A stretch of DNA of 64,000 nt from an uncultured bacterium (lineage in GTDB: Bacteria > Oederibacteriota > PGYV01 > CAWJRG01). The notes under the pieces are model-generated. The model saw nothing but the letters and a program-made list of their open reading frames with translations. It was not told the origin of the DNA and ran no database searches. How positions within the stretch are numbered: position 1 is the stretch's first letter; each line of letters starts with the position of its first letter. The stretch is from positions 32,001 through 96,000 of the forward strand of contig CAWJRG010000009.1 of assembly GCA_963845185.1 (NCBI GenBank), read 5' to 3'. Made by a program: the position numbers and the translations under genes. Shown one piece after another: positions 15,262-63,279 of the stretch.

Positions 15262-16215
15262 ATGACAAAACTTTCTTTCGTTATACCATGTTACGGCTCA
15301 GAGAAAACGATAGGTCATGTAGTTGAGGAGATAAAAAGGACCGTTGAAATAAAAAATGATTATATTTATGAGATTATATTAGTAAATGACCATTCTCCTG
15401 ACGGCGTTTTTACCGTAATAAGAGAATTATGCAAGGAAGATCCCAAGGTAAAAGCAGTCAGCCTGACACGAAATTTTGGGCAGCAAGCTGCTTTAATGGC
15501 CGGGCAGAATCAAGTCACGGGGGATATAGTTATATGCCTTGATGATGACGGACAATCGCCTGTTAATGAATTGCATAGATTGTTAGATAAACTTAATGAA
15601 GGATATGATGTTGTATACGCCGGTTATGGCACGAAAAAACAATCAATGTTAAAAAATTTCGGGAGTTGGCTTAATTTAAGAATGGTTGAAATACTTTTAA
15701 ATAGACCCAGAAAAATTAAATTATCAAGTTATTTTGTAATGCGCCGTTTGATTTCAGATGAAATGATAAAGTATAAAAATCCTTATCCTTACAATATTGG
15801 ACTTATTCTTTCAATAACCCGCAAAATAGCAAGCATAGACTGTGAAGACAGGGAAAGATTAAACGGTAAAAGCGGTTATACTTTTGCGAAACTTGTAGGA
15901 ATATGGCTTGATGGTTTTACGAATTTTTCTGTTCAACCGCTAAGAGTAGCCACGGTTCTCGGCGGTATTTGCGGAGCTTTTGGCTTTGGATTTGGGATAT
16001 ATACGGTAATACATAAAATTATGAATCCTGATATACCGGCAGGGTACAGCGCTATTATCTCAATGATTTCATTTATAGGGGGCATGATTTTACTCATGCT
16101 TGGAATGATAGGCGAATATATAGGGAGAATTTTTATAAGCATAAATAAGATTCCACAGTATGTAATAAATGAAAAAATAAATATTGAACAAGAAAATAAT
16201 TCTGACAAATCGTAA
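15262..16215 (+). CDS. GtrB/ArnC-like polyprenol-phosphate glycosyltransferase (GT2)
   Basis: SFVIPCY, VNDHSPD, RNFGQQAA, DDDGQSP, two C-terminal TMs, GEYIGRI. Confidence 0.9.
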   Translation: MTKLSFVIPCYGSEKTIGHVVEEIKRTVEIKNDYIYEIILVNDHSPDGVFTVIRELCKEDPKVKAVSLTRNFGQQAALMAGQNQVTGDIVICLDDDGQSPVNELHRLLDKLNEGYDVVYAGYGTKKQSMLKNFGSWLNLRMVEILLNRPRKIKLSSYFVMRRLISDEMIKYKNPYPYNIGLILSITRKIASIDCEDRERLNGKSGYTFAKLVGIWLDGFTNFSVQPLRVATVLGGICGAFGFGFGIYTVIHKIMNPDIPAGYSAIISMISFIGGMILLMLGMIGEYIGRIFISINKIPQYVINEKINIEQENNSDKS

Positions 16216-40310: not shown

Positions 40311-40413
40311 TAATAGATCGTTTACTTGCCCAAGCCGCCAGCAGGCGCAGGCAAAGTATTACGAGATATTATACCCGCTCAAGTCCGAGGCAACAGCCGA
40401 GGACAAGCGGTAT
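40311..40413. repeat. Two-hairpin intergenic element, copy 1
   Basis: TAATAGATCGT...TTACGAGATATTATACCCGCTCAAGTCC...GGACAAGCGGTAT. Confidence 0.8.
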
Positions 40414-40453
40414 CAAGATATAATGTATGAAACTTACAAAGAGGGGGGTAACA

Positions 40454-40738
40454 ATGCAAAAAAAATTTAAACTTCTGATTTTCTTCATTTTATTATTAAC
40501 TTCTTTATTCACGAGCCGTGTTTCTGCCGGAATACTTACTCCGACTCCTACAGTAACGCCGACACCGCCAGCTGCGGTCACGGCGGCTTCAGCAGCGTTA
40601 CCATTAAATCAATATCCATTCTATCAGTACATAGACAAGCAGGGCAAAAAATGGTACGTAGTAAACGGGAAAAAATATTCTTTTATTGCCGTAACACCTA
40701 CACCTACGCCCGTAATCACGCCTGTGCCGGAGGAATAA
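40454..40738 (+). CDS. Small secreted protein with TP tracts
   Basis: GAGGGGGG RBS, signal peptide ending VSA, TPTPTVTPTP at both ends; stop 1 nt before next start. Confidence 0.7.
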   Translation: MQKKFKLLIFFILLLTSLFTSRVSAGILTPTPTVTPTPPAAVTAASAALPLNQYPFYQYIDKQGKKWYVVNGKKYSFIAVTPTPTPVITPVPEE

Positions 40739-40739
40739 A

Positions 40740-43700
40740 ATGAAAAAAATACTATTTGCAATGGTATTTTTGCCAATAACATTTTATGCTTTTGGACAAA
40801 ACCTTACATATACAAATACAAACGGCATGTGGGAATGGGATAGTAATGTAATTGGATATTATCAGCTTGGGACAAGTTCAATGATTGAGACCGTAAACGG
40901 ATATAACGCCTCGGTCGTAGGCACGTTAAGTTATTATACAAGCGGACCGAATGTGCCGCCAAATGCGTGGACATCGGGAAGCTGCACAAGCAGTGGGAAT
41001 TTCGGCGACTATATAATGTGGCAATCGGCCGTGAATTTCGTTTACGGGCCTTCCTCGACACAGCCGTTTTCAATTGAATGGTGGATGTATCTTGTGCCGG
41101 AATGGACCGAGGGTACGGATGCGCAGACAATTTATGCCACCAGTGACTGGATAGGAAATAATGCCGGATATAATTTTATCATGGACTGGCAAAATACGAC
41201 ATACCAGGCAAGGTACTGGTACTGGAATTTTATCGGGCAATGGAGTGACATATCCACCAGCGATGAAACTACATGGGAAGACTGGGCCGTTACTTACGAC
41301 GGCCAGGGCAATGTAAATATTTATAAAAACTGCAATTTTGTGAGGACGCTTCCCGTGTCGTCGGCGGAAAATGTATTTTACGAAATGTACAGCAATGATC
41401 CGAATGAATTTGTGATGTGGCTGGATTATTCCCAGGGTACCGAACGGCCGTTCACGGGGTATCTGGCTGATATAATCGTATCGAATGTCGCAAGAGTATG
41501 CGTGTCGCCGATACCTGTAACCCCGACGTTTACTGCGACAAATACATCTACGTATACGCCCACATTTACCGTAACAAACACGCCGACAGATACAATGACA
41601 CCAACTTATACAAATACGACGACATATACACCGACATGGACGCCGACATATACCGTGACGCCTACAAATACGCCACTACCGACTATTTGTATAGCATCAC
41701 CGGTACCAACTCCTTGTTTTATTTCAATCTGGGGCAGCGGGGGAATAGACAATGGGCTGTTTGGAAGCCCGTGGGGACTGGCAGTAAACAGCAGCGGCGA
41801 CGTGTTTGTAGCGGATTATACCAATGATTTAGTTGATGAACTCGGTCCGTCAGGAAACATTATGAATCAATGGAACGGCAATATAGCCGGAAGCGGCAAC
41901 GGGCCGTTTAGCGGGCCTGCCGGAATATCATTTGACAGCCTCGGGGACGTTTATGTTGTGGACTCGGATAATAACAGAGTCGAAGAGTTTAACAGCACGT
42001 TTACAACACTTATAGCACAATGGAATGGTTCCACAAGCGGTAGCGAGTTTAATTTCCCTCTTGGTGTAGCAGTAGATAGTAACGGAATGTATGTTGCAGA
42101 CTATGAAAATAACAGAATCGTAGAATTCAACAGTACAGGAGGATATGCGGGACAATGGAACGGTTCCGAAACCGGCAGCGGGCCGCTTGACGGCCCTGCT
42201 GCGGTAGCCGTGAACAGCGTCGGGGACGTTTATGTTGTAGACTCGGGTAATAACAGAATCGTAGAATTCAACCTTGGAGGAGCATATATAGCGCAATGGG
42301 ATTACGCCGGCCCCGGTAACGAGATGTTTAATTATCCTCTTGGAATAGCAATAGACGGCAGCGGAAATATGTATGTTGCGGATACGGATAATAACAGTAT
42401 CGAAGAATTTAACAGCGCAGGATGTTATACAGCACAATGGAGCACCGGAGCAAACACCAGCCCATGGGGAATAGCAGTAGACAACAGCGGTGACGTGTAT
42501 ATTTCGGATGCGGATAATGCAATAATCGAAAAATTCGGCCCGTGTGCGACATTTACAAATACGCCGACAAATACGTTTACATGCACCCCGACAGGTACCG
42601 CTACATTGACGTTGACGGGCACACCGACAGCAACGCCGACAGGTACAATAACCGAAACAAACACACCGACAAACACTCCGACGGCAACGGCGACATGGAC
42701 GCCGACAAATACGCCGACAAGTACGCAAACATATACAAATACACTGACGAGTTCACCAACATATACGAATACGCCAACAAGTACACCAACAAATACACCG
42801 ACAAGCACGCAAACATATACGGATACCCCGACGTGGACAGTTACAAAGACATCAACAAGTACACCGACATATACAGATACACCGACTGCAACCCCGACAT
42901 ACAGCCCAACTTATACGCCAACGTGGACGCGAACAAATACTTTGACTACATCGCCTACTTGGACGCCAACAAATACGAATACGCTGACATGGAACCCGAC
43001 AAATACAAGGACTTCTTCATTTACAAACACGGTTACACCAACTTGGACGACGACAAACACGCCGACAAGCACAAATACGCCTACATACACATTTACGCCG
43101 ACAAACACAAGAACACAGACAAATACGCTGACGAATACGCCTCTGCCGACAAACACATTCCCGCCGACATTTACAAATACCGTGACAGGAACGATTACGC
43201 CGACATATACAAATTCCCCGACATACACAATTACACCATCGTCAACAAATACAGGGACTTCGACATTTACGCCGACAAATACACCAAACTATACGCACAC
43301 GATTACGCCGACGAATTCACCGACATATACGAACACGCCGACAGGCACAAGGACACCGACATATACATATTCCCCGACAATAACAAAGACATCAACAAAT
43401 TCGCCAACAGGAACGCGTACACCTACATATACAACATCCCCGACAATTACAGTTTCACCGACGAATACGCCAACAGGCACAAGGACGTCTACATATACAT
43501 ATTCACCAACAGTTACAAAGACATCAACATGGACGCCGACAGGTACAAGGACACCGACATACACAATATCACCAACAATTACAATGACACCGACGATAAC
43601 GCTGACAGGAACAATAACATATACATATACAAATACGCTAACTTTCACTATTACACTTACTGTTACTTTAACGTTTACTGTAACGCCGACTATAGAATGC

Positions 43701-46700
43701 AATTATAATGTCTATAGCGATGCAACCGAAACTTATGTGGAATATGACGAGAATGGTAATTATTTAGACCAAGGAAACGCCGTCATAGTTACAGAAAAAC
43801 CAACTAACTGGACACTACCATGCGGCGGGGGAAACTGGATTTCAACTAATAACCAAGGTTCAACTGGCACAAGCGACACAAGCGGGAATAGGTTGGATTT
43901 TTCAAAAACTATTTCAATAGCACCTGGAATATATAATGCGTATATTTTAATGGCAGGCGATGATAATTTTAATATGACTATTAATGCTCCTTCCTATACT
44001 TTCTCTGATGTCGCGTATTGCGACGGTGAGCCCAACTGTGCCCCTGGCATGGGCGGATCATGTTATTGCAGTTGTGAGTATTTTACAGCTAATGGCGTTC
44101 CTGGCGGGACAATTAATATAGAAACCGAGGCTATCGATGTATATGGCTCTGATTACGGGGAGTCGTATTCAATTTGTTTCCAATTGGTGGCTACAGTGAC
44201 GATAACTCCGACATCCACAATATCGCCGACAATAACGCAGACTTATACAATAACGCCGACTTTTACGATTACAGGCACATTTACTCCAACTGCGACATCG
44301 ACCGATACGCCGACTACAACGCCTACATACAGCCCGACATGGACAGGGACATGGACGCCCACGAATACGCCGACGAGAACACCGACATGGACGCCGACAA
44401 ATACGCCGACTTCAAGCCCGACATTTACACTGACCTCGACGTACACATACACGGTGACGGATACATACACATTTACTTACACGGATACAAGCACGTATAC
44501 AGACACGCCAACATATACGATAACGCCTACGTATACAATTACTGTAACATTTACCAGGACAGCAACGCCGACATGGACACCGACAAATACGCCAACTTCA
44601 AGCCCGACAATCACAAAGACATCTACATATACGTACACGGTAACAGATACTTACACGTTTACTTATACGGATACAGCTACGTATACAGTGACGCCGACAT
44701 ATACGAAAACGCCTACCTGGACACCGACAATAACTGTAACGTCTACAAATTCACCGACATATACGAATTCACCGACAATTACAGATACAAGGACAGATAC
44801 GATGACACCGACACGCACCTACACCATAACCGACACTTATACATTTACGTATACCGTGACGCGTACAGATACGCCAACCTGGACGCCGACCATTTCGCCG
44901 ACACGTACAATAACAAAAACTTTCACGAACACGCCGGTAGTTTCAAGGACATGGACTGGGACAAGCACGCCAACGTATACAATCACGAGGACATCGACAG
45001 TTACATATACCATAACCGACACTTACACATTTACCTTTACCGTGACGCGCACAAACACGCAGACAATAACGCCGACTATAACAAAGACAAATACCAATAC
45101 ACCGACAAAGACAATATCGGCGACGTACACAAACTCACCGACGCTAACAGTTTCGTACACCATGACAGATACATATACATATACTTATACGGCAACACCA
45201 ACCAGAACACAGACGCCGACAAATACAATAACAATGACAATTACTGTTTCGCCTACGCCTACAATATCGCCGACAATAGCGATAAACCTTGTAATAATCA
45301 GTATAACAGTATCGCCGGCAAGCGCGGCAAGCGGGCAGGATATAACAGTAGTGATGCTGGTGCAGAATATAGGACAAAATACCGCGGATAACGTAGTACC
45401 GTCCAGGTTGTCGCTGTCCGGAGAAGGAAAGGCTGTACTGGTAAGCGGGCCAAGCCCTGCAAGCACGATAATAGCGGGAGGAGGCGCGCAGGCATCGTTC
45501 ACATGGGTGTATGCTATTGTAATATGCAACAATATGACATTCAGCGGGACAGTAAGCGGCACTGACGCGGTGGACGGAGCTGGCATGACAAGTGCGCCGG
45601 CAACAAGCAACGAATTCACATGCGCAACACCGACAATATCAGCCACATATACGCCGACAGCGACAAAGACCAGTGTCCCACCATGTTTGCAATATGAACT
45701 AAGTATGTACGGTACTACAACTGGGGACTCGTTTTTGATTGATTCAAGTAACAGGATAGTGATAACAGGGGGAATATCTACAGGAGGATTTGCAATTGAA
45801 AGGTTGTTTTTAAATGGTTCGCATGATACGAGTTTTGCAAACGCTGGTTATTACAATATATCATCGGGAACACTCATGAAGAGTCACGTGGCAATAGACT
45901 CAACCGGTGAAATAATAATTGCAACAGGCGCATGGTGGCAAAATGGTTTGGCAAATACCGGGGCAGCAATGCAGATATGGAAAATAAAAAGCAATGGCAG
46001 CGGCCAGGATTGGAATGTGTCGGTAAACGGATTGGCAGGAACCGGTTTGGACAATGGCACCACATGTGGCAATGGAATTGCCATAGACAGTTCAAACAAT
46101 ATTATTGTAGCGGGATGTCATTATAACGCTTCAGGAAACTGGGATGCTGTCGTATGGAGATTCCTGCCTAATGGCACGCTTGATACAACAAATTTTGGAG
46201 GAGGCAATGGCTATGTTGTTTTGGACAATATTGCGGGGACAGGGAGTAATGATTACGGCTGGGATGTGAAAATTGATTTAAATGGAAACATTGTTCTGAC
46301 GGGGATAAGTCAAAGTCAGGATTACACAACAACAGAAATGTTTACTGCCAGACTTCATTATGACGGAACAAAAGACAATACTTTTAGCGGAGGTCTTATT
46401 ACATCTCTTGTAGGTTCTGGTTCTGGTGGATATGCATTAACTATAACTGCGGATAATAGCGTAGTAGTTACAGGAGCAACAGGAGGTTTTAGTACTTTCG
46501 GTGTAGGCGGAGGCATGGCGGTATGGAAAATAAATAACGACGGTTCACCCAATACAAGTTTTAACGGCGGTTATAATACTTATAATCCAGGAAACCATAT
46601 GTACACTGGAAACTCTGTTGTTTTAGATAATTGCGGAAAAGTACTGATTGCAGGATTAGAGTCGGGTGTAGGGAACAATTCCTCTCAAGATATGGTAATA

Positions 46701-48377
46701 TGGAGATATAATTCTAACGGTAGCCCGGATAATACCTTTAATGGAGGAACAAATATTTATAACTTAAACGCCGGGGCAATGCCTGGCTATTGCATAAAAT
46801 ATGTTTCATCATCCGGAGAAATATTAGTATCAGGGAACACAGTTGCAGGTGTTGAATTGTGGAAATATGAAGATTTATGCGCGTGCAACGTTGACACACC
46901 AACTATTACACCAACACCAACATTTACTCCTGCATGTGTACCTACATGGCAGTATGTAGGAACAGAGGGTTTCTCGTCCGGCAGCGTGGAATTTACTTCA
47001 ATGGCCATGTACGGCATAACTCCATATATGGCATATATGGATTCCGGTGATAGTTCATATGCAAGTGTAATGCAATACTCATCAGGTGGAGGTTGGAGTT
47101 ATGTGGGAGGAAGTCGTGGAATTTCAGGGGTACCTGCACTTTACGAATCATTAGCTGTTGATAGCGCTACTGGAAATTTATATCTTGCCTTCGCAAATCC
47201 AGCGCAATCATGGGCATTGACAGTTATGGAATGTGTATCAGGAGTATGGAGTACATTAGTTTCTACCAGCTGTCAAGTCGGCACAACAACTCCTGATTGC
47301 ATCTCTGTATTTGTATACAACAGCATTCCTTATGTCGCATTCCAGAATATCAGTTCAAATGGTAATAAGGCCAAAGTAATAGAATATAATTCATCTGGAC
47401 CGTCATGGACGAATTTAGGCTATGCTTCTTCTGCAGAGGCGGATTATTTATCTTTAAATGTTGTAAATGTTGGCGGAACAGGAGTGCCTTATCTTGCATA
47501 TAAAGATAAAAGTATCTCAAATAACGGGCTCACTGTAATGGAATATTCGGGAACCCCAACTCCAAGCTGGAATAACGTCGGTGGAACAGGTGTATCGAGC
47601 GGACAGGCAAATTATATCTCAATGGATGTTATTGTGAATCCTTCAGGAACACCGGTACCGTATGTGTCATTCAGCAATCAAACAAGTGGAATCGGGGAAG
47701 TTATGGAATATAATAATTCAAGTTGGGGCATAGTGGGCAATAACCCATTTGCAACATCGACAAGTATTGGTTACACATCGTTGTTCGTCTATAACAATAT
47801 TCCTTATGTGGCTTATGAAGACAGCTCTCATAGCGGTAAAATGACTGTTATTAATTATACTGGAGGGACAAGCTGGAACACACTAGGAAGCCAGGATTTT
47901 ACTTCCGGTGATGCTCAATCAATAACGCTGCAAATAGACAGCAATGGAGTGCCTTATGTAGGATATGAGGATGGCGGTGATTCTAATTACGCATCTGTAA
48001 TGACCTTTTCATGTTCAGGAATGGCCGGAAAGGAAAATTATACTGGGCTTTTATCAAAACCAATACCTACCTCGACAGTAGTATACGAAAGTCTTGATGC
48101 AAAAAATGTATATTGTTTTCCAAACCCGAGCAAAGGCGAGACGACTATAAGGTTTCCCCTTGCAGAACCTTCAGACGTAAAATTAATTATTATGGATATA
48201 AACGGTAAAAGGGTATGGACGCATGATTTAAGCTCCAGCGAGACGCTAGCCGGAATAAATAAAATAATCTGGAACGGTGTTAATGATTCGGGTTTGCAGG
48301 TATCAAACGGAGTTTATTTGTTTGTGATTGAAGCAGGTAATAAAAGAGTTGAGAAAAAAATAGCAATTATAAAATAA
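40740..48377 (+). CDS. Giant secreted mucin-like protein: LamG-like, NHL propeller, Thr tracts, lectin-like, Ig-like, delta-60-like repeats, 7-repeat propeller, FlgD-Ig/Por-CTD-like end
   Basis: Signal peptide; FSIEWW..WAVTYDG..IYKN; P.GIAVDSSGDVYVAD repeats; RFLPNGTLDTTNFG repeats; YCFPNP..NGVYLFVI..KKIAIIK. Confidence 0.85.
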   Translation: MKKILFAMVFLPITFYAFGQNLTYTNTNGMWEWDSNVIGYYQLGTSSMIETVNGYNASVVGTLSYYTSGPNVPPNAWTSGSCTSSGNFGDYIMWQSAVNFVYGPSSTQPFSIEWWMYLVPEWTEGTDAQTIYATSDWIGNNAGYNFIMDWQNTTYQARYWYWNFIGQWSDISTSDETTWEDWAVTYDGQGNVNIYKNCNFVRTLPVSSAENVFYEMYSNDPNEFVMWLDYSQGTERPFTGYLADIIVSNVARVCVSPIPVTPTFTATNTSTYTPTFTVTNTPTDTMTPTYTNTTTYTPTWTPTYTVTPTNTPLPTICIASPVPTPCFISIWGSGGIDNGLFGSPWGLAVNSSGDVFVADYTNDLVDELGPSGNIMNQWNGNIAGSGNGPFSGPAGISFDSLGDVYVVDSDNNRVEEFNSTFTTLIAQWNGSTSGSEFNFPLGVAVDSNGMYVADYENNRIVEFNSTGGYAGQWNGSETGSGPLDGPAAVAVNSVGDVYVVDSGNNRIVEFNLGGAYIAQWDYAGPGNEMFNYPLGIAIDGSGNMYVADTDNNSIEEFNSAGCYTAQWSTGANTSPWGIAVDNSGDVYISDADNAIIEKFGPCATFTNTPTNTFTCTPTGTATLTLTGTPTATPTGTITETNTPTNTPTATATWTPTNTPTSTQTYTNTLTSSPTYTNTPTSTPTNTPTSTQTYTDTPTWTVTKTSTSTPTYTDTPTATPTYSPTYTPTWTRTNTLTTSPTWTPTNTNTLTWNPTNTRTSSFTNTVTPTWTTTNTPTSTNTPTYTFTPTNTRTQTNTLTNTPLPTNTFPPTFTNTVTGTITPTYTNSPTYTITPSSTNTGTSTFTPTNTPNYTHTITPTNSPTYTNTPTGTRTPTYTYSPTITKTSTNSPTGTRTPTYTTSPTITVSPTNTPTGTRTSTYTYSPTVTKTSTWTPTGTRTPTYTISPTITMTPTITLTGTITYTYTNTLTFTITLTVTLTFTVTPTIECNYNVYSDATETYVEYDENGNYLDQGNAVIVTEKPTNWTLPCGGGNWISTNNQGSTGTSDTSGNRLDFSKTISIAPGIYNAYILMAGDDNFNMTINAPSYTFSDVAYCDGEPNCAPGMGGSCYCSCEYFTANGVPGGTINIETEAIDVYGSDYGESYSICFQLVATVTITPTSTISPTITQTYTITPTFTITGTFTPTATSTDTPTTTPTYSPTWTGTWTPTNTPTRTPTWTPTNTPTSSPTFTLTSTYTYTVTDTYTFTYTDTSTYTDTPTYTITPTYTITVTFTRTATPTWTPTNTPTSSPTITKTSTYTYTVTDTYTFTYTDTATYTVTPTYTKTPTWTPTITVTSTNSPTYTNSPTITDTRTDTMTPTRTYTITDTYTFTYTVTRTDTPTWTPTISPTRTITKTFTNTPVVSRTWTGTSTPTYTITRTSTVTYTITDTYTFTFTVTRTNTQTITPTITKTNTNTPTKTISATYTNSPTLTVSYTMTDTYTYTYTATPTRTQTPTNTITMTITVSPTPTISPTIAINLVIISITVSPASAASGQDITVVMLVQNIGQNTADNVVPSRLSLSGEGKAVLVSGPSPASTIIAGGGAQASFTWVYAIVICNNMTFSGTVSGTDAVDGAGMTSAPATSNEFTCATPTISATYTPTATKTSVPPCLQYELSMYGTTTGDSFLIDSSNRIVITGGISTGGFAIERLFLNGSHDTSFANAGYYNISSGTLMKSHVAIDSTGEIIIATGAWWQNGLANTGAAMQIWKIKSNGSGQDWNVSVNGLAGTGLDNGTTCGNGIAIDSSNNIIVAGCHYNASGNWDAVVWRFLPNGTLDTTNFGGGNGYVVLDNIAGTGSNDYGWDVKIDLNGNIVLTGISQSQDYTTTEMFTARLHYDGTKDNTFSGGLITSLVGSGSGGYALTITADNSVVVTGATGGFSTFGVGGGMAVWKINNDGSPNTSFNGGYNTYNPGNHMYTGNSVVLDNCGKVLIAGLESGVGNNSSQDMVIWRYNSNGSPDNTFNGGTNIYNLNAGAMPGYCIKYVSSSGEILVSGNTVAGVELWKYEDLCACNVDTPTITPTPTFTPACVPTWQYVGTEGFSSGSVEFTSMAMYGITPYMAYMDSGDSSYASVMQYSSGGGWSYVGGSRGISGVPALYESLAVDSATGNLYLAFANPAQSWALTVMECVSGVWSTLVSTSCQVGTTTPDCISVFVYNSIPYVAFQNISSNGNKAKVIEYNSSGPSWTNLGYASSAEADYLSLNVVNVGGTGVPYLAYKDKSISNNGLTVMEYSGTPTPSWNNVGGTGVSSGQANYISMDVIVNPSGTPVPYVSFSNQTSGIGEVMEYNNSSWGIVGNNPFATSTSIGYTSLFVYNNIPYVAYEDSSHSGKMTVINYTGGTSWNTLGSQDFTSGDAQSITLQIDSNGVPYVGYEDGGDSNYASVMTFSCSGMAGKENYTGLLSKPIPTSTVVYESLDAKNVYCFPNPSKGETTIRFPLAEPSDVKLIIMDINGKRVWTHDLSSSETLAGINKIIWNGVNDSGLQVSNGVYLFVIEAGNKRVEKKIAIIK
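42545..43695 (+). repeat. Thr-x/TPT low-complexity coding tract
   Basis: Degenerate ACGCCGACA/TATACA/AATACG units encoding TPTxTx. Confidence 0.9.
44190..45280 (+). repeat. Thr-x/TPT low-complexity coding tract
   Basis: TYTYTVTDTYTFTYT and TPT units. Confidence 0.9.
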
Positions 48378-48491
48378 GAATTTGTTTGTAGATAAGGGAT
48401 CAATTAACAATTATAATAATTATTAATGAAAAAAATGTTCCTTTATGTTAAATTATTAATGCAAAGAATTTTATTAACATAAGAGGAAAAA

Positions 48492-50828
48492 ATGCTGAAA
48501 AAATACAAAGACCTAATATTGTTGTTAATCTGTCTTATTGCTATATTCCAATTATATCTTTACACTACATTTCCAGCCTTCAAAAATGACGATTCTCCTG
48601 AAACAACTACCAGCGCATTTACCCTTGGAATAAGCCGCCCGCCTGGTTATCCTCTGTTTACGATGCTTGGAAAGACATTTTCGTTATTACCTTTAGCTTC
48701 CCCGGCGTTCAGAATAAATTCATTGTCAATTTTTATATCAGTTATCATTTTATATTTAACTTATTTCTTAATTCGACGTAATATGAGTTTTATTTTTAAT
48801 TATGAAAAAAAACTGATAAATATATTTTCAGTCTTTGTGACGGCTTTTTCTTACATATATTGGAATCTGGCAATCGAAGCAAAAGGTGGAATATATATGC
48901 TTAATCTTTTGTTTCTGGCAATACTTCTTTATTTAAGTATCGAACTTTTTAAAACGTTTAACATTAAACAGATGTATTTAATGTCGTTTATATATGGCCT
49001 TTCACTTGCAAATCATTGGCCAAGTACCATAATACTTTTACCTGTTTTTGCCTATTTTTATGTAAAATATCGGCAAAAACTAACATTCAACAGAATGTTT
49101 AGTATTTCATTATTTTCGATACTGGGAATAAGTCCGTATATTTATTTGCCAATAAGAAGCAATGCCGATGGTATTTTTATTTTCATAACAAGATCAAACA
49201 CATGGGAAATGTTCTGGTGGACTGTTTTAAGGGGAGTTTATACTAATTTTCAGATGCAAACAATGGCGCCTTATATAGACCAGATAAAAGAATTTGTAAC
49301 TTTATTTTTAAACAATTTTACATTTATTTGGATTTTATTTTTATTTGGAGCTTATATAATATTCAAAAAAAACAAAAAACTTCTTTTTTTTTATTTTGCC
49401 GCTTTTTTAATAATTGTTTTTATGGTTGTGATTTATAACCGCAGTTCCAAAGAAAACTTGTGGGTACTTGAAAATTTTCTGTTACCGGCTGAATATCTTT
49501 TGATAATTCCAATAACAGCAGGAGTTTATTTTATTATTGAAATTTTGAAAAACAAAAAATTTTCTTTATTATTTATTTCTTTGTTTGTTTGTGCAATTCT
49601 AAATTTAGGGTTTAGATCTTTAAAAGCCAATTACCAAAGATATAACTATTTATCCTATGACTTTGGAAATAATGAACTAGTTACAATGGAAAAAGACAGT
49701 ATTTACATTCCTTTTAGTGATTTCTACGGCATGCCTCTTAGTTATTTGCAGATGGTGGAACATAAAACTGATGATTTTAACATATACATGCTATATAATT
49801 TATCAAATCAAGGAATTGCAAAAAAATTTGGCAGGGATTATTTAAAAAATGATAAAATTGAAATAAATATTGAGGATTTGACAGAAAGATATTATGGAAA
49901 AAGCAATGTTTATTTTTCAGATTACCGCAAAGAACTGATAAAAAATCCTGATAAAAATGTAACCTTAAAAATAAAAGGATTATTATTTAAAATTGCCAAT
50001 ATAAACGACTATATACCCCCGTGGATATTTAAAAATTATGCATATAGAGGCATATTTAATGTCAATAATGATTATGACAAAACGCTTATCTCGAAGTACA
50101 GCAGCCAACTTAATAATCAAGGTTATGATTTACTTATGATAAAAAAGTATGATAAAGCCATTGAAACATTCAAGTATGCATTGCTTTTTCCAGACAACCC
50201 ATATAAAATTAATACTTATTTTAATTTATTTACTGTTTATAAAGAGCTAAATGATGAAGATAATGAGATAAAATGCCTTAAATCAATGGTCAAGATAAAA
50301 CAGGATTATTTTAAAGCGTATGAAATTTTAGGCATGATCTATTATAATGAAAAACTTTGGATTCCTGCAAAAGTAATGTTTGAAAAAGCAGTGCAATATG
50401 ACAGTGAAAATAGCGTTACGTTTCAACAATATGTAAATCAAATAGGTGATGCAAATACATATTCACAATATAAAGTGCTATCCGACCAGGCTGCTGCATT
50501 TGTGACTTCTGGCAGGTATTTAAAAGCACTTGATTTATTCGAATTTTTACTTGAGCAAAATTACGCAACGGGTGAAGTATATAAAAATATGGGGATATGT
50601 AATTTAAAAATCAATAATTTTGAAGAATCATTAAAGTATTTTCAGAAAGCATTGGAAATGGATAAAAGTGTCGAAAATTTTATCAATATCGCTAATACAT
50701 ATAATAAACTAGGACAATCGGATAAAGCATTAAATACCTTAAGAGAAGAAATGCAAACCGTTGGCAATGACCCTCAACTGGTGAATTTATATAATCAAAT
50801 TGAACAAACGAAAAATAAAACAAAATAG
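48492..50828 (+). CDS. DUF2723/TMEM260-like GT-C glycosyltransferase with C-terminal TPRs (copy 1)
   Basis: DDSPE..LGISRPPGYPL, YGLSLANH, YIYLPIRS; TPR-like helices. Confidence 0.82.
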   Translation: MLKKYKDLILLLICLIAIFQLYLYTTFPAFKNDDSPETTTSAFTLGISRPPGYPLFTMLGKTFSLLPLASPAFRINSLSIFISVIILYLTYFLIRRNMSFIFNYEKKLINIFSVFVTAFSYIYWNLAIEAKGGIYMLNLLFLAILLYLSIELFKTFNIKQMYLMSFIYGLSLANHWPSTIILLPVFAYFYVKYRQKLTFNRMFSISLFSILGISPYIYLPIRSNADGIFIFITRSNTWEMFWWTVLRGVYTNFQMQTMAPYIDQIKEFVTLFLNNFTFIWILFLFGAYIIFKKNKKLLFFYFAAFLIIVFMVVIYNRSSKENLWVLENFLLPAEYLLIIPITAGVYFIIEILKNKKFSLLFISLFVCAILNLGFRSLKANYQRYNYLSYDFGNNELVTMEKDSIYIPFSDFYGMPLSYLQMVEHKTDDFNIYMLYNLSNQGIAKKFGRDYLKNDKIEINIEDLTERYYGKSNVYFSDYRKELIKNPDKNVTLKIKGLLFKIANINDYIPPWIFKNYAYRGIFNVNNDYDKTLISKYSSQLNNQGYDLLMIKKYDKAIETFKYALLFPDNPYKINTYFNLFTVYKELNDEDNEIKCLKSMVKIKQDYFKAYEILGMIYYNEKLWIPAKVMFEKAVQYDSENSVTFQQYVNQIGDANTYSQYKVLSDQAAAFVTSGRYLKALDLFEFLLEQNYATGEVYKNMGICNLKINNFEESLKYFQKALEMDKSVENFINIANTYNKLGQSDKALNTLREEMQTVGNDPQLVNLYNQIEQTKNKTK

Positions 50829-50840
50829 TAGGTAATCTAG

Positions 50841-51269
50841 TTATTTCTTCACATTAGCCGTATTTGAAGTTCCGTTCGTATTACTTTCAAGCTGCTTTAC
50901 CCACGCGTTATATTCAGGCTCGACTTCTTTCAAACGTTCCCTTGCTTTTTTCACCCACTCACTTTCCGGAGGAGTAAACAAATCAACGACAGTCTTGTAA
51001 GCTACATAAGCGTTTTTGAGGGAATTGTCGTCCATAAGGAACTCATATTCAAGTTCGGTTATTTTCTTTTTATCAAGTTCGTCTTTGTAATAAGCCGCTT
51101 TTGCGTCGGGATTCTTGTAAAAATTAAGGAATTTCTCGCCTTCCAGATATTCATGCTTTGCCCTTCTCATAACATCTAAATCAGCCAATGCGAAAAATAT
51201 TATTAATGTAATTACTACCAATCCGGCTATAAAAAGATATTCCTTGTTCTTTTCCTTGTTTTCAAACAT
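50841..51269 (-). CDS. Hypothetical single-TM protein with helical body
   Basis: AAGGAGG RBS before ATG 51269; N-terminal TM. Confidence 0.7.
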   Translation of the reverse strand: MFENKEKNKEYLFIAGLVVITLIIFFALADLDVMRRAKHEYLEGEKFLNFYKNPDAKAAYYKDELDKKKITELEYEFLMDDNSLKNAYVAYKTVVDLFTPPESEWVKKARERLKEVEPEYNAWVKQLESNTNGTSNTANVKK

Positions 51270-51282
51270 GATTTCGGCCTCC

Positions 51283-51380
51283 TTAGAGCCCGTTGATTTT
51301 GCCAAGCGTCAACAGTGAAGGCAAAATTTTACGGGGTCTTATACCCGCTCAAGTCCGGTTTCTATACGGACAAGCGGTAT
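51283..51380. repeat. Two-hairpin intergenic element, copy 2
   Basis: AGAGCCCGTTGATTTTGCC...GGCAAAATTTTACGGGGTCTTATACCCGCTCAAGTCCG...CGGACAAGCGGTAT. Confidence 0.85.
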
Positions 51381-51604
51381 TACTCGTCCCAGCCTATCAA
51401 TATACCGACAGCAACAAGTATGTACCCGCCTATTATAAGTATCGGCGATACGGCTCCTACCCAGTTAGACGCATCTGCGTTTACTTTGGTCAGGATATAG
51501 TACCCAAGTACCAGAATAGCTATGGCCACGCCTATGACATAAAGGCCGTTTTTGTTTTTGCCTGCAACTTTTTGCTGGTTTTCTACCGGCTTATTTTCTT
51601 CCAT
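51380..51604 (-). CDS. Small two-TM membrane protein (DUF3098-like by eye)
   Basis: AGGAGG RBS; two hydrophobic segments, SPILIIGGY. Confidence 0.65.
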   Translation of the reverse strand: MEENKPVENQQKVAGKNKNGLYVIGVAIAILVLGYYILTKVNADASNWVGAVSPILIIGGYILVAVGILIGWDE

Positions 51605-51614
51605 TGTAACCTCC

Positions 51615-51714
51615 TAAGAGTCCGTTGATTTTATTGAGTGCCTACAGCGAAAATAAAAACTTACGGAATCTTATACCCGCTCTAGTCCAGACAGCAGGTC
51701 AGGACAAGTGGTAT
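51615..51714. repeat. Two-hairpin intergenic element, copy 3
   Basis: TAAGAGTCCGTTGATTTTATT...AATAAAAACTTACGGAATCTTATACCCGCTCTAGTCC...GGACAAGTGGTAT. Confidence 0.85.
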
Positions 51715-51738
51715 ATTATTTTATGAGCAAATTATAAG

Positions 51739-54392
51739 ATGAAACTTATAATCTGTCAACAGCTCGAAAGACGTTTGAAAAAAACAGCCACGCCGACTTT
51801 GACAAATACCCTGACGCCGACCGGCACATCGACATATACTTTTACAAGCACGCCGACATATACTATAACAAAAACCACGACGCCGACTTATTCCATTACG
51901 GTTACATACAGCAAAACAGCCACCTATACGCCTACACGGACGGCAACGCCTACAAACACCCCGACAGGGACTCCGACAAAGACATCGACGGTTTCACATA
52001 CATTCACGCCTACAAACACAAAAACATACACTCCGACGCGGACTCCGACAAATACGCCCACAAAAACAAATACCATGACAAGCACGAAGACGCCGACATA
52101 TACGGCTACAAGGACAATCAGCGCGACATATACAGCGACCCCGACAATCACAAAGACAATACCGCCCACGTCAACCGCAACATCCACTATTTCGCCCACG
52201 GCATCGGCTACAAGGACAATCAGCGCCACATACACAAAGACCCCGACGTTTACCCCTACATTCACAATAACTTTAACAAAGACACCGCCACCCACAAGCA
52301 CGCCCACATATACCATAACCGTGACATACACATTCAGTTTCACCGACACGGCGACTTACACCATCACGGACACTCCTACAATAACGCTTACATCCACGGT
52401 TACACCGACATTTACCGTAACTCCGACTTTGACAATGACAAAAACAACCACACCTACATATTCGATAACAATGACCTGGACATTTACTTATACGGCCACG
52501 CCGACAAATACAGAGACAAATACGCCGCTACCCACGCAAACGGCCACGCAGTCGGAGACTTATACGAATACGCCGACATGGACGCCTACAAATACACCGC
52601 CGCCAACAGGTACTCCGACATATACAATAACGGCAACATACACATATTCATTTACGTATACGGCGACAAACACGATAACATCTACGCGGACAATCACGCT
52701 GACAGATACGATAACTCAAACATTTACCATATCCCCAACCCCTTCCCCCAGTCTTACTATCACAGACACATATACAATAACGGCAACGTATACATTCTCA
52801 TATACTTATACAGGCACGCCTACAATTACGATAACTCCTACAATATCACCTACATCATCAATAACGCCCGACTACTCGCCTACGATAACGCTGACAATAA
52901 CTTTGACAAATACGAACAGCCCGACTCCGACAAAGACCAGTGTCCCGCCCGCGCCGACGGCGACAAGTACTGCGTGCGCTATGAGCTGGCAGGATGTGGG
53001 TGCCCAAGATTTTTCCTCGCCTTACACAGCAAATTTTTTATCTTTCGGCATAGATAGCACAACCGGAATACCATATGTGGCGTTTTATGATACTAATGAC
53101 ACTCAGGAAATATTAGTAATGAAATATGTTGCGGGTTCTGGATGGATACAGGTAGGTAATGCGGTAGCATCATTTCAACTAGGTTTTAATAATATGCTCT
53201 CAATATATGTCTATAACGGAACAGCATATGTCGCGTATGTAGATGTATCAGATAATAGTAAAATTACAGTAAAGGAAAATACAGGAGGAAGCAACTGGTC
53301 GGTGGTAGGAACAGCCGATTTTACAAACCAATCTTCAGGAGATATTTGTTTAAGTGGAAATGGCGCGACGCTTTATCTTGTATATCAAGATGGAACGAAT
53401 TCTTATAAAGCAACAGTTTGGGAATATACGGGGGGAAGTACTTGAACCCGTTGGGTACCGCTTCGACTGGGGGAACAACATATATATCTTTATCTGTATC
53501 CAATGGAACGCCGTATGTAGCATATTCAGATGGAACGAATTCAAATAAAGCAACAATAATGGAATATGCAGGAAGCAGCACTTGGACATCATTAGGCACC
53601 GCTTCAACGGGACAGGCAAATTCTGTATCTTTATATGTGTCGGGAGGAGTACCATATGTGGCTTATCAAGACACTTCAAACAATAGTGAAGCAACGGTGA
53701 TGGAATATGCAGGAAGCAATAATTGGACATCGTTAGGAACCGCTTCGACTGGAGGAGCATCGTTTATATCTTTATATGTCTATAATAACACTCCGTATAT
53801 TGTGTATTCAGATAGTAATAACAACAATGAAGCAACGGCGATGGAAAATACAGGAGGAAGCAACTGGTCGGTGGTAGGAAGCGCAGGATTCTCAGGCTCT
53901 TCAGCAGGCCCTACAGAATTTGATTCCTTATATGTCTATAACGGAATACCATATGCGGCGTATCAGGATAATAACGGATTTTCATCAGTAATGGAATATA
54001 GCTGTCCTGGCGGAGCAAGCCCGGGTGTCGTGAAAGCTGCAAGTCTTGTAAAAAATGTATCTACACCTACACCAGAAGCAATGAATATAAACAATACATA
54101 TAATTTCCCGAATCCATGCAGCAGCCAGACAACAATAAGATTCTCTTTGTCTACACCAACTAATGTTAATATCGGGATATACGATATAAATGGACATAAG
54201 ATATGGAGTAAGAGTTTAAGTGAAGCTTCGGTAAACAGCGGCGTAAATTATATTATTTGGAATTTGCGAAACGATCAAGGTATGGAAATATCAAATGGCG
54301 TATATCTTCTCGCTATTCAAGCGGAAGATAAGACTGTAAGAAAAAAAATCGCGGTTATACGGTTAGGAAGATGTAGCACAAAGGCGATGTAG
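51739..54392 (+). pseudogene. Thr-tract + 7-repeat propeller + FlgD-Ig/Por-CTD-like protein; no signal peptide, frameshift at ~53444 (may be a sequencing error)
   Basis: ORFs 51739..53445 and 53418..54392 join into one repeat series if one G is restored (ACT TG[G] AAC CCG); YNFPNP..SNGVYLL..KKIAVIR. Confidence 0.7.
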
Positions 54393-54526
54393 AGCTCGTA
54401 TTTGCGAGATAAGGAGCAAAGCCCATTATCTTCTACAACAAATAATTTACCAAATTTTAATGGAAAAAATATTATTTCATGTTAAATTAATAGATAGCAG
54501 TATATAATAATTAAAAGGATAATTTA

Positions 54527-56521
54527 ATGTGGAAAAAATATAAAGATACTATAATATTGCTATTATCTTTAATTGCCATATTTCAATTATATCTTTACAC
54601 CACATTTCCTGCTTTTAAAACTGACGATTCGCCTGAGACAATAACGTCAACATATACGCTCGGCATACAGCACCCGCCCGGATACCCGCTCGACACCCTT
54701 ACCGGAAAAATTTTCACCCTGATACCGTCCGGTAACCTGATGTACAGGAGTAATTTTACTGCGTTGTTTTTCCACATATTAAGCTCAATGTTGATTTTCT
54801 TCTTTGTGCTAAATTGTTTTGCATCAGAAAAAGAGCCGGAACCAAGGGACAAATATTTTGCAGTTTTATCATCGTTATTATATTTTTTATGTTTTACACC
54901 TTTTTCACAGGCTTTGTCAGCCAAAGGAAGTATTTATACCATCAACGCTTTTTTCACTGTCCTATTTTTTTTCGCCCTGTTTAAAATACCGGAATCAAAA
55001 AAATATGCTTATTTTTCGGCGTTTATTTATGGGCTGTCCATGGGCAACCACTGGCAAAGCATGGCTGTTATTTTTCCGGCTATGCTCTTTTACCTTATAA
55101 TGAAACGAAAATACGTGAAATTTAATATTATAATAAAGGGCCTGGTTTTCTTCTTACTCGGAGCATCGGTGTATTTATTTGTGTTTATCAGAAGCTGGAA
55201 TGCTCCGGTTTTCGCATGGGGAGACATAAGGACAATAAAGGATCTATTCTGGCTTATTGGCAGGGAGCAATACAGGTTTGCCGAATCTACACATTCCATA
55301 GCCGATACTTTACGGCTTTTATGGTTTTATCTGGGAAATATACTGGTAAATGAATATATTTTCTATGGTGCACTGCTTTTTATCCCGGGCGCGTATTTCC
55401 TGATAAAAAAACAAAAGTTTGAAGGCGCGGCAATAAGCATGGCGTATTTATGCATATTGGCAGGCATAGTTTTAATTTCAACGCCAAAGCCGACAATCGA
55501 ATGGGTCATAAAGCCGTATTTTACGTCGTCCTATATTTTTATTTCTGTCCTTGTGGCAGCATGCATTTTGGGCCTTATTGGACTTATGAAAAAAAGCACG
55601 GAAAAATCACAAAATAATATATCCTTGGCAGTCATTGCCGCGGTTGTCATATTATCCCTGTTTCACATGCCGGATTATTCAAGAAATTTTATAGGTTATG
55701 ATTACGCGGATAATATAATAAAGACATTACCGGAAGATTCGTTATTTATTGCCGAAGGGGATTTGAATATAAACGGCACTTTATATAAACAGCTTGTTGA
55801 GAAAAAGGAGCTATTGGTTATCAGCCCTCTTTTGCTTGAATACGACTGGTACAGACTGCAGACGGCAAAAAATTATTACGGCAAAATAATAATGACGCCT
55901 AAAGCAGGAAACGGAGTGGAGGATTTACATAATATAATAATGGCAAACAAGAGCAAAAGGATATATTACTCAAATTCATATACAGCAGAATGGCAGAGGC
56001 TTGGGTTTGCGCCTATGGGCATAATCAACAGGGTGTTGACAGGGCAGAAAGATAAAACCGCTGCAAACGGGAACTATTTCCAGATGTATTCCTACAGGGG
56101 CATCATAGGCGATAAAGTAAATTACGACGAGTCCACGGACCTTCTGGCTGTAAAGCATTATTCGTGGAGTTTTATTACCCTGGCGGAAATGCTGAAAAAC
56201 TCCGGGAGCTACGCTGCGGCTGTCAAACTTTACAAATACAGCCAGGTATTTGAACCAAAAGATACGACCCTGGCAAGGATAGGCCTGTGTTATTATAATA
56301 TGAAGGACATGCAGAACGCGGAAACATTCTGGAAAGAGGCAATTGAATTAAACCCTCAAGCCTCTTATGCTTATTCATCCCTCGCTGCCGTTTACTTAAA
56401 CAGGGGAGAAACAGCAAAAGCTATTGAATACGTTGATAACGCCTTAAAATATGACAGCAATAATATAAACGCAGTACAATTGAAGATAATTATTAATAAA
56501 AGACAATCTGTAACGCAATAG
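54527..56521 (+). CDS. DUF2723/TMEM260-like GT-C glycosyltransferase with C-terminal TPRs (copy 2)
   Basis: DDSPE..LGIQHPPGYPL, YGLSMGNH, EGD; TPRs (EAIELNPQASYAYSSLAAVY). Confidence 0.85.
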   Translation: MWKKYKDTIILLLSLIAIFQLYLYTTFPAFKTDDSPETITSTYTLGIQHPPGYPLDTLTGKIFTLIPSGNLMYRSNFTALFFHILSSMLIFFFVLNCFASEKEPEPRDKYFAVLSSLLYFLCFTPFSQALSAKGSIYTINAFFTVLFFFALFKIPESKKYAYFSAFIYGLSMGNHWQSMAVIFPAMLFYLIMKRKYVKFNIIIKGLVFFLLGASVYLFVFIRSWNAPVFAWGDIRTIKDLFWLIGREQYRFAESTHSIADTLRLLWFYLGNILVNEYIFYGALLFIPGAYFLIKKQKFEGAAISMAYLCILAGIVLISTPKPTIEWVIKPYFTSSYIFISVLVAACILGLIGLMKKSTEKSQNNISLAVIAAVVILSLFHMPDYSRNFIGYDYADNIIKTLPEDSLFIAEGDLNINGTLYKQLVEKKELLVISPLLLEYDWYRLQTAKNYYGKIIMTPKAGNGVEDLHNIIMANKSKRIYYSNSYTAEWQRLGFAPMGIINRVLTGQKDKTAANGNYFQMYSYRGIIGDKVNYDESTDLLAVKHYSWSFITLAEMLKNSGSYAAAVKLYKYSQVFEPKDTTLARIGLCYYNMKDMQNAETFWKEAIELNPQASYAYSSLAAVYLNRGETAKAIEYVDNALKYDSNNINAVQLKIIINKRQSVTQ

Positions 56522-56728: not shown

Positions 56729-56899
56729 AATGGCCAATGAGTTATACTTTGTTCGAAATCAAGCGACAAAAACGTAAGGAGGTGGCTTTTGTCAAGGGAT
56801 CTGCAAAAAATAAAAAAAACTAAATGGAATAATTATATCTGAATTTGTATCTTATATTCATTAATTAAAATTTCAAAAAAACAGATGTGGGGTGAGCGT

Positions 56900-62800: not shown

Positions 62801-63279
62801 ATGGGGCAGTACAATATACATCATTAAGTATCAGTAATGGAACGCCATATTTGGCATATCAGGATGTTACAAATTCGAATGCAGCTACAGTGATGACGTA
62901 TAATGGAGTAAGCTGGACAGCATTAGGGAAAACAGATTTTTCACCCGGCGGTGCAAATTATACGTCATTGTTTGTGAATAATGGAATACCGTATGTAGCA
63001 TATCAGGATGTCCAGAATAATAATTATGCATCTTTGATGAAATTTGACTGCGGCTCGTCAAATACGCCAACGCTTACGATTACAATGACGCCGACAATAA
63101 CAATCACAGCAACGCCGGCACAGACGATAACCCCGCTGACAAATATGTCATTGTGGTCGAACAGGACAGTAGGCACCGGAAACCTTGGTTCTTATTATGA
63201 CAGGTATCTGCATACGGGAGCATGGATGAAATTTGGGAACAATTACCGAAGTGTGTTTTTGACAGGAGAGGTAATATGA
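56900..63279 (+). CDS. Secreted C25 (gingipain-type) cysteine peptidase with propeptide, Ig-like domain, Thr linkers and three 7-repeat propellers; frameshift at ~60528; 3' end possibly cut by IS
   Basis: Signal peptide; GEPLLP propeptide; YVLLGGD, EGHG, LTACETG, LMGDP; ORFs 56885..60535 and 60523..63279 continue one repeat series. Confidence 0.8.

Follow-up and report, generated by a model that had tools for sequence, protein, structure and literature searches.

The window analysed here is a stretch of 64,000 nucleotides from contig CAWJRG010000009.1 of an uncultured bacterium of the phylum Oederibacteriota (positions are those of the whole window unless a genome contig such as C1 or C9 is given; the genome is the 3.50 Mb assembly, 99.4% complete). 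Its central part holds two genes encoding surface proteins with long threonine (Thr) tracts, each followed by a co-oriented gene that combines DUF2723 (PF11028), the family of human TMEM260, with tetratricopeptide repeats (TPR). The original prediction took these pairs to be dedicated substrate-enzyme modules in which each transferase glycosylates the Thr tracts of the protein encoded beside it. The gene order is as it was described, with gaps of 114 bp (gene 1 to GT1) and 134 bp (gene 2 to GT2):

40740..48377, + strand: Thr-tract surface protein 1 (gene 1), 2545 aa (translation, Pfam)
48492..50828, + strand: GT1, a TMEM260-like glycosyltransferase of the C fold (GT-C) with Rossmann-like domain and TPR, 778 aa, subfamily A (Pfam, structure model, alignment)
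51739..54392, + strand: Thr-tract surface protein 2 (gene 2), broken (translation, Pfam)
54527..56521, + strand: GT2, a TMEM260-like GT-C with TPR, 664 aa, mosaic (Pfam, alignment, tree)

Gene 1 encodes, in this order, a signal-peptide-like N-terminus, an NHL propeller, the Thr tracts, delta-60 repeats, a 'VPYVAY' repeat domain and a C-terminal domain of the type IX system of secretion (T9SS), type A. The N-terminus (MKKILFAMVFLPITFYAFGQ) resembles a signal peptide as read by eye, without a predictor run. The tracts have Thr at every second residue over long stretches (the Thr-x-Thr pattern, TxT) and the whole protein contains 520 Thr, with 883 residues falling in 60-aa windows of at least 38% Thr; the Pfam matches are NHL (six copies), DUF5122 (the delta-60 repeats), FlgD_ig (6.4e-9) and Por_Secre_tail (2.6e-7, residues 2460-2543). 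Gene 2 also encodes TxT tracts, 'VPYVAY' repeats and a T9SS type A C-terminal domain, and is split into two frames (51739-53445, 568 aa with 189 Thr, and 53418-54392, 324 aa) that switch near 53418-53445, the second of which matches Por_Secre_tail (2.4e-8) and TIGR04183 (7.2e-10). Its 5' end is truncated: the signal peptide is absent, and an in-frame stop five codons ahead of the ATG blocks any upstream extension. The T9SS sorting-domain models scored 31.3 and 34.6 bits for PF18962 (cut-off 27) and 38.7 bits for TIGR04183 (cut-off 23). The 'VPYVAY' repeat domain is found in only 6 genes of the genome, 4 of them inside the window, and gene 1 and gene 2, which have it in common, are local paralogs. 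The pairs had been described as occurring "twice in a row"; both are present, but the second Thr-tract gene is truncated and frameshifted and, because the two Thr-tract genes are such paralogs, the repetition does not represent two independent events.

The profile searches that had been proposed, for DUF2723, TPR and the FlgD_ig/Por secretion tail, all returned matches above the cut-offs. PF11028 scored 80.2 bits in GT1 and 82.2 bits in GT2 (cut-off 24.2), followed in both by TPRs, several families of which lie above their own cut-offs. A profile of 22 paralogs matched human TMEM260 (PDB 9rql) with an E-value of 5.8e-67 (profile positions 13-505, chain residues 31-548), and residues 1-520 of GT1 alone matched it with 2.8e-22 (chain residues 34-461). 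The AlphaFold2 model of GT1 (predicted local distance difference test score 86.6) is composed of a membrane core, a small alpha/beta domain and a TPR solenoid (helical repeat 527-777). Its VIA-align matches include ALG12 (Z 25.6, 420 residues aligned, root-mean-square deviation 5.1), STT3 (Z 25.0), ArnT (Z 24.9, 435 residues aligned), Pmt4 (Z 23.7) and PglB (Z 21.8), so that the GT-C fold expected from the original prediction is present, with Z about 25 to the first three. The Foldseek list obtained with the whole model was dominated by TPR proteins, with PglB/STT3 at TM 0.37-0.39. The solved TMEM260 was absent from the match lists of both Foldseek and VIA-align (structure library to 2026-04-08), the match to it having come via sequence. 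GT1 and GT2 are genuine TMEM260-family GT-C enzymes with the luminal/periplasmic Rossmann-like domain and TPR arm.

The catalytic residues were mapped from the GT1-9rql alignment, with roles as given in the accessible part of a preprint on the human enzyme (10.64898/2026.03.17.711096), and their conservation was read from the alignment of the 22 paralogs. According to that part of the preprint, D52 is the acidic residue of the first loop and D441 the catalytic base in the Rossmann-like domain; R264 and Y267 belong to the donor loop; H67 is an essential donor-side His, whose mutation abolishes activity; and the R355A mutant retains about 20% activity. Without exception, the 22 paralogs have the residues corresponding to D52, Y267 and D441 (D52 corresponds to D34 and D441 to D410 in GT1), and that of R264 is kept in 17 of the 22, GT1 and GT2 included. 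The H67 equivalent is His in 21 of the 22 paralogs, including GT2, and in all 18 of 18 loci of relatives retrieved by Pfam coordinates, independently of the His motif; GT1 alone has Arg (Arg49, codon 49, 48636-48638). A further count of 79/79 His in loci L021-L098 was discarded as circular, since the retrieval pattern itself contained the His. GT2 keeps the equivalents of D52, H67, R264, Y267 and D441, and not that of R355. Arg49 of GT1 is a natural variant, which would make the enzyme either inactive or altered in its donor site. The proposed likeness to TMEM260 thus stands for homology, fold and most catalytic residues; it does not extend to R355, nor, in GT1, to His67.

The genome encodes 25 PF11028 genes. 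Thr-tract genes, counted in a crude non-overlapping set of 2,798 genes, number about 127 and span 477,912 bp (13.7% of the genome); the TxT pattern (ten alternating ACN codons) has 7,535 matches versus 36 for the reversed control, and the T9SS sorting-domain model has 88, of which 60 lie within Thr-tract open reading frames (ORFs). Candidate substrates (about 127 Thr-tract genes) thus greatly outnumber the enzymes (25 transferases), and nothing close to a one-to-one ratio exists. Adjacency was assessed among genes of at least 300 aa at distances of 700 bp and 1.5 kb. A Thr-tract gene lies within 700 bp of 7/25 transferases and of 74/1177 other genes (odds ratio 5.8, p 9e-4), and within 1.5 kb of 8/25 and 113/1177, respectively, leaving 17/25 transferases without a Thr-tract gene inside 1.5 kb and about 118/127 Thr-tract genes without an adjoining transferase. 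When only the strict immediate neighbour was considered (crude gene calls), a Thr-tract gene was directly 5' of 4/25 transferases versus 67/2646 other genes (p 0.004). On a quick maximum-likelihood tree of the 25 transferases the label "adjacent" changes 5 times, compared with a mean of 7.0 on shuffling (41 of 500 shuffles as low). Adjacency between transferases and Thr-tract genes moderately exceeds chance in this genome.

The partners of the transferases are of particular kinds. The last 260 residues of 128 Thr-tract ORFs (the halves of gene 2 counted separately) were clustered blind to adjacency, giving one cluster of 77, two of 10, several small ones and 13 singletons. All nine ORFs located 700 bp or less from a transferase fall in the two 10-member clusters (4/10 and 5/10), that is, 9/20 ORFs of these clusters are transferase-adjacent versus 0/108 of the others (Fisher p 9e-9). 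Cluster 1 has the tail FPNP...NGVY...KKIA, often after the 'VPYVAY' repeat domain, and cluster 2 a double Ig-like tail. Adjacency tracks these two C-terminal subfamilies of cargo, not the Thr tracts as such. A third pair of Thr-tract gene and transferase begins just beyond the end of the window (C9:96562-102431), and the order Thr-tract gene, transferase, Thr-tract gene, Thr-tract gene is repeated at C1:58-78 kb, C5:287-319 kb and C5:90-102 kb; since these loci repeat one gene order, the independent juxtapositions are few.

The neighbourhood enrichment across genomes on which the original prediction depended was not observed, an outcome that had been named beforehand as refuting it. The paralog profile found 78 related loci, with labels that include Goldbacteria, FCPU426, Firestonebacteria, Elusimicrobia and others, and a co-oriented Thr-tract ORF lies directly upstream in one of them (L070); the upstream flank is at least 3 kb long in 57 of the 78 and shorter in the remaining 21, perhaps through contig breaks at repeats. 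In three well-assembled relatives, all PF11028 genes were considered with about 9 kb upstream of each (9 in G019, 6 in G004 and 5 in G036): a co-oriented Thr-tract ORF is absent from the 1.5 kb upstream of all 20 transferases, and one of them has such an ORF, of 230 aa, 2.0 kb upstream. Twelve further loci from G009, G014 and G011 (two G014 transferases at contig starts left out) also gave 0/12 with an upstream Thr-tract gene. Pooling the six relatives, a Thr-tract gene is just upstream of 0/32 transferases and just downstream of 1/32; some of these 32 loci probably overlap with the 78. The sole close adjacency among the relatives examined is L127 (G019:C2:67309-79309), in which a TMEM260-like frame of 553 aa is followed, 18 bp on, by a co-oriented Thr-tract frame of 473 aa. 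In the loci with the best GT1 matches (L022, L023, L026 and L027), a Thr-tract frame of 180-242 aa lies on the opposite strand, about 2.4-2.9 kb downstream of the transferase match.

The original prediction had also pointed to an N-terminus and an upstream sequence common to the two transferase genes. Both are present: GT1 and GT2 are 84% identical across 38 N-terminal residues (about 31% elsewhere, the two belonging to different subfamilies), and the motif TTAATGRAAAAA-N-ATGTTAAATTA stands about 48 nt ahead of the start codon of each. These elements, and a small gene facing GT1, are:

48423..48455, + strand: upstream motif copy 1, TTAATGAAAAAAATGTTCCTTTATGTTAAATTA, candidate GT1 promoter (alignment and genome motif search)
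54457..54489, + strand: upstream motif copy 2, TTAATGGAAAAAATATTATTTCATGTTAAATTA (alignment and genome motif search)
50841..51305, - strand: membrane-anchored protein, 154-aa ORF, member of a 3-copy family (genome family search)

Neither the N-terminus nor the upstream sequence marks a substrate-enzyme module; they appear instead to be a transferase-specific promoter and a recombined 5' end. The motif has 6 matches genome-wide (at most 2 substitutions), all of them 5' of subfamily-A transferase genes; two are on contig C11 without a Thr-tract neighbour, and a copy identical to TTAATGGAAAAAATATTATTTCATGTTAAATTA lies on another contig ahead of a transferase that has none. Because all six copies precede subfamily-A transferases, two of them lacking a Thr-tract neighbour, the motif was assigned to the transferase cassette, and it is probably the promoter of that cassette. 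Subfamily A (GT1 and two others) matches the first 38 residues of GT2 with 84% identity, against 37% for the nearest whole-length relative of GT2; over the remainder of the protein that relative, of subfamily B, is 62% and 60% identical and GT1 about 31%. By these comparisons GT2 is a mosaic in which a subfamily-A promoter and the first 38 codons are joined to a subfamily-B body, and this is why GT1 and GT2 have N-terminus and promoter in common. The N-terminus as the signature of a module was rejected, the subfamily-A 5' end being found also on transferases without a Thr-tract neighbour.

The small membrane-anchored family (about 140-154 aa) has copies at 50841-51305 (- strand), C9:102443-102877 and C10:331971-332399, and all three converge on the 3' end of a subfamily-A transferase, 12-59 bp away; one of the three is at a locus without any Thr-tract gene. 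A Pfam search with the copy at 50841..51305 gave no family; the protein may be a partner of the transferase, or merely a piece of the duplicated cassette. Taken together, the mosaic, the cassette-bound motif and the convergent small gene point to duplication and recombination of transferase cassettes. A promoter and terminator scan of 48200-54700 was uninformative (28 promoter-like sites against a shuffle mean of 27.3, and 3 terminator-like sites against 4.0), and placed no terminator-like site in either gap between Thr-tract gene and transferase. At two other pairs, hairpins resembling terminators and followed by T-runs, as read by eye, precede the promoter of the transferase.

A dispersed hairpin repeat of ~100 nt, with core TATACCCGCTCAAGTCC...GGACAAGCGGTAT, occurs in the window at 40370-40386, 51340-51356 and 51672-51688, two of the copies flanking the truncated 5' end of gene 2, and elsewhere in the genome at C9:916536-917136. 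Its 17-nt core has 101 genome matches (at most 2 mismatches), beside unrelated genes, and one tandem array has a 100-bp period. The proposal that this hairpin, which resembles repetitive extragenic palindromes and lies near both Thr-tract genes, is a regulatory element common to them was rejected in view of the 101 genome-wide matches beside unrelated genes.

Under one reading of these results the adjacency has no functional meaning: two recent lineage-specific expansions would have accumulated in the same recombination-prone islands, the arrangement being copied by segmental duplication. This agrees with the paralogous blocks of identical order, with the presence of four of the six 'VPYVAY'-domain genes in the window, with the recombinant nature of GT2 and with the unit of transferase and convergent small gene, which recurs three times, once without a Thr-tract neighbour; the figures from the six relatives, upstream and downstream, are likewise near this genome's background of 6.3%. 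We nevertheless regard it as distinctly unlikely, given that the adjacent transferases are scattered on the paralog tree, that the odds ratio of 5.8 is sizeable, and that two sister subfamily-B transferases are found in two different locus types, which means that the genes came or stayed together on more than one occasion.

The view that every Thr-tract protein has its own dedicated transferase, as first proposed, is very improbable. It can appeal to the short co-oriented gaps, in which no terminator-like site was found, to the third pair just past the window end and to the 7 or 8 of 25 transferases that lie beside Thr-tract genes. It is opposed by the numbers of enzymes and Thr-tract genes, most of which have no partner nearby, by the conserved promoter motif that the transferases have of their own, by the terminator-like hairpins ahead of that promoter at the two other pairs, by the damaged state of the second "substrate" gene and by the near absence of the adjacency in related loci; the copy numbers of the two kinds of gene are also uncoupled across the phylum, as given below.

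The genes on either side of the pairs are the following:

40427..40738, + strand: small secreted protein with short TPTPT stretches (ORF map and translation)
56885..60535, + strand: C25 (gingipain-family) peptidase with propeptide and 'VPYVAY' repeat domain, directly 3' of GT2 (Pfam)
60523..63279, + strand: 918-aa 'VPYVAY'-repeat protein with a short Thr tract, overlapping the preceding ORF by 13 nt

The position 40454, given originally as the start of the first of these, is an internal ATG that opens the signal-peptide-like sequence MQKKFKLLIFF..., and a Pfam search of the protein at E<=0.001 gave no family. The C25 peptidase and the 918-aa ORF (56885-63279) are possibly a single gene broken by a frameshift. 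With respect to secretion, the model of SprA, the T9SS translocon, gave four collinear partial matches in one frame of 2148 aa (C9:182882-186208), each below the 200-bit cut-off; this frame is possibly a divergent translocon serving the 88 proteins with the C-terminal domain. The model of the sortase PorU had 50 of its 51 matches in the C-terminal-domain region (model positions about 956 onward), the remaining one being weak (E 7.7e-8, positions 335-442).

Pfam and sequence searches identified a glycosylation island upstream, at 13-40 kb of the window. It contains genes of glycosyltransferase family 2 (a family name, distinct from the gene GT2) and of the PMT_2 type of GT-C:

15262..16215, + strand: PgfS/ArnC-like gene of glycosyltransferase family 2, candidate polyprenyl-phosphate sugar (donor) synthase, matching PgfS (3e-50) and ArnC (4.4e-46) over its full length
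16434-19115, 21175-24630, 25750-29310 and 31927-34983, + strand: four large PMT_2-type GT-C genes, interleaved with glycosyltransferase family 2, radical-SAM and small NHL-propeller genes

The PgfS/ArnC-like gene has no second copy in the genome at E<=1e-20 and is one of three family 2 genes of about 315 aa in the island, which also encodes a carbamoyltransferase, an epimerase/dehydratase, an AsnB-like amidotransferase and methyltransferases. The stretch 13201-19115 forms an ArnB/ArnC/ArnT-like set (DegT aminotransferase, GNAT, the PgfS/ArnC-like gene, then a PMT_2 GT-C). A tandem-duplicated pair follows (20155-24630 and 24747-29310), each unit being an NHL/SGL beta-propeller gene (about 325 aa) and then a giant PMT_2-type GT-C (1151 and 1186 aa), another possible client-enzyme arrangement. 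The island plausibly offers a route to a lipid-linked sugar donor and, equally, rival enzymes for the Thr tracts. The genome has 28 PMT_2-type genes (33 model matches minus 5 in TMEM260-like genes), and thus about 53 GT-C genes in 3.5 Mb (25 TMEM260-like and 28 PMT_2-type), both counts being the highest of 41 genomes sampled.

The interpretation that we tentatively adopt, and rate a little short of probable, is that GT1 and GT2 belong to a shared family of periplasmic protein O-glycosyltransferases, rather than being private enzymes of their neighbours, with the Thr tracts as plausible acceptors. By homology with human TMEM260, each paralog would sit in the inner membrane and, at the periplasmic face, accept one sugar from a polyprenyl-phosphate sugar; its Rossmann-like and TPR arm would hold a proline-spaced, extended part of a Sec-exported protein, and the sugar would pass onto a Ser or Thr hydroxyl. 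In the human enzyme this arm grips extended proline-spaced peptides and a Thr is mannosylated, according to the accessible part of the preprint (10.64898/2026.03.17.711096). From this homology and the TPR arm we infer that TMEM260-like enzymes O-glycosylate exported proteins, among which the Thr-tract proteins with a T9SS-type C-terminal domain would be plausible acceptors. The pairing seen in the window would then be the product of duplication and recombination of transferase cassettes at a few paralogous loci of one genome, each cassette having its own promoter, some carrying the convergent small membrane-protein gene, and the cassettes sitting in islands of two surface-protein subfamilies.

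Several observations weigh against this interpretation. Arg49 of GT1 sits at the His67 site, whose mutation abolishes the activity of human TMEM260 (in the part of the preprint cited above), and the R355 equivalent (transmembrane helix 10) is not conserved, being N in GT1 and P in GT2. The enrichment within the genome rests on few paralogous loci and its effective sample size is small. The plausibility of the Thr tracts as targets is weakened by a dissociation across the phylum, for which the sample was 41 genomes including this one; as the genomes are related, the p-values look stronger than they should. Each genome has between 0 and 25 TMEM260-like matches (this genome has the most) and between 0 and 7,535 TxT matches. 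In six genomes, from two families, 3-16 TMEM260-like genes occur without a single TxT match, so the Thr tracts cannot be the general substrate of the TMEM260-like family; two others, 99% and 97% complete, lack TMEM260-like genes while containing 504 and 99 TxT matches, so the tracts do not need that family; and three genomes with one transferase each have 2,848, 2,375 and 473 TxT matches. The counts of TxT and TMEM260-like matches do not clearly correlate (Spearman rho 0.27, p 0.085); rho is 0.60 within the order (0.13 after removing genome size) and -0.44 outside it. The counts of TxT and PMT_2 matches correlate with a rho of 0.64 (p 7e-6; partial on genome size, 0.62), and of 0.73 outside the order, the cross-genome PMT_2 counts containing a few TMEM260-like genes (2/29 in this genome).

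These figures bear on another explanation, in which the TMEM260-like paralogs act elsewhere than on the Thr tracts (on defined stretches of the two cargo subfamilies, such as strands or linkers close to the C-terminal domain, on other exported proteins, or on a non-protein acceptor), and the tracts are glycosylated by PMT_2-type GT-C enzymes or not at all. The pairing does follow C-terminal type; PMT_2 counts track the TxT load; there are genomes rich in TMEM260-like genes without tracts; and the window itself holds four PMT_2 genes with a PgfS/ArnC-like donor synthase. Human TMEM260, moreover, acts on IPT domains and is domain-specific, not mucin-type, as stated in the available portions of two sources (PMC10214176; 10.64898/2026.03.17.711096). 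On the other side, PMT_2 genes show no significant nearness to Thr-tract genes (4/28 within 700 bp, p 0.10), in contrast to TMEM260-like genes, the count correlations come from related, non-independent genomes with PMT_2 counts that include TMEM260-like genes, and the C-terminal clustering could stem from segmental duplication alone. We consider this explanation possible, if doubtful, and retain the shared family with the Thr tracts among its plausible targets as the working interpretation.

Some features of the proposed system are found in characterised ones. The actinobacterial Pmt enzymes (GT39) are GT-C proteins that use polyprenyl-phosphate mannose on Thr-rich linkers of Sec-exported Pro/Thr-rich proteins; they belong to a GT-C family different from the TMEM260 type, are present in single copy and have no TPR domain. 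The PMT_2-type genes of the window are presumably the nearer relatives of that family. To human TMEM260 (PF11028; PDB 9rql/9rqm/9rqn) the enzymes described here are homologous across the whole GT-C core and the Rossmann-like domain, with the same domain order (GT-C, Rossmann-like, TPR), the D52/Y267/D441 equivalents invariant and those of R264 and H67 mostly kept. They differ in being bacterial and in having 25 copies per genome, as well as in lacking a conserved R355 and, in GT1, in the Arg in place of His67. The human enzyme targets one Thr in IPT domains, as far as the accessible part of the preprint describes it (10.64898/2026.03.17.711096), whereas the candidate acceptors here are long Thr tracts.

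In streptococci, according to the portion of the source available (PMC12041528), GtrB with PgtC2, and the Pgf system (PgfS, PgfM1/M2), use a GT-A enzyme that makes the polyprenyl-phosphate sugar and a GT-C enzyme that transfers it extracytoplasmically onto Ser/Thr-rich disordered regions. The window resembles the Pgf system in encoding a full-length PgfS/ArnC-like enzyme; the streptococcal GT-C enzymes are of YfhO-type or other families, not of the TMEM260 type, have no TPR arm, are few per genome and are not encoded beside their substrates. As in Bacteroidota, in which O-glycosylation and glycan attachment to T9SS cargo are known, the candidate substrates carry T9SS-type C-terminal domains; the accessible part of one source describes the transferase of periplasmic O-glycosylation in Bacteroidota as still undiscovered (PMC12871550). 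This organism is not a member of that phylum, the sequon of Bacteroidota is a short motif and not a TxT tract, and, unlike in the Bacteroidota T9SS, the SprA-like matches are partial and below cut-off and the PorU matches lie almost only in C-terminal-domain regions. The main text of the single-cell paper on Goldbacteria (PMC7031533) does not contain the terms threonine, linker, T9SS or glycosylat. In a limited literature collection no tested function was found for a bacterial TMEM260-like/DUF2723 protein, the DUF2723 match concerning the human enzyme and the TMEM260/GT117 matches being human or unrelated.

A broader picture, which we consider unlikely as a whole, is that of a mucin-like sugar coat on more than 100 Thr-stalk surface proteins, built by about 53 lipid-sugar-dependent GT-C enzymes whose diverged TPR arms would set acceptor specificity, subfamily A being specialised for the two neighbouring cargo subfamilies; this would be a bacterial counterpart of the division of labour between POMT, TMTC and TMEM260 in animals. 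As regards the locus itself, gene adjacency in a single genome overstated the link between transferase and Thr tract, and any specificity goes with the kind of C-terminus that the cargo has, not with the tract. If exported proteins are indeed glycosylated by these enzymes, they would constitute a third bacterial GT-C route to protein O-glycosylation, beside actinobacterial Pmt and streptococcal PgtC2/Pgf, and could bear on the missing transferase of Bacteroidota O-glycosylation. The genome, with its 25 paralogs, a natural His-to-Arg variant, a mosaic enzyme of natural origin and many candidate acceptors, would lend itself well to tests of the family.

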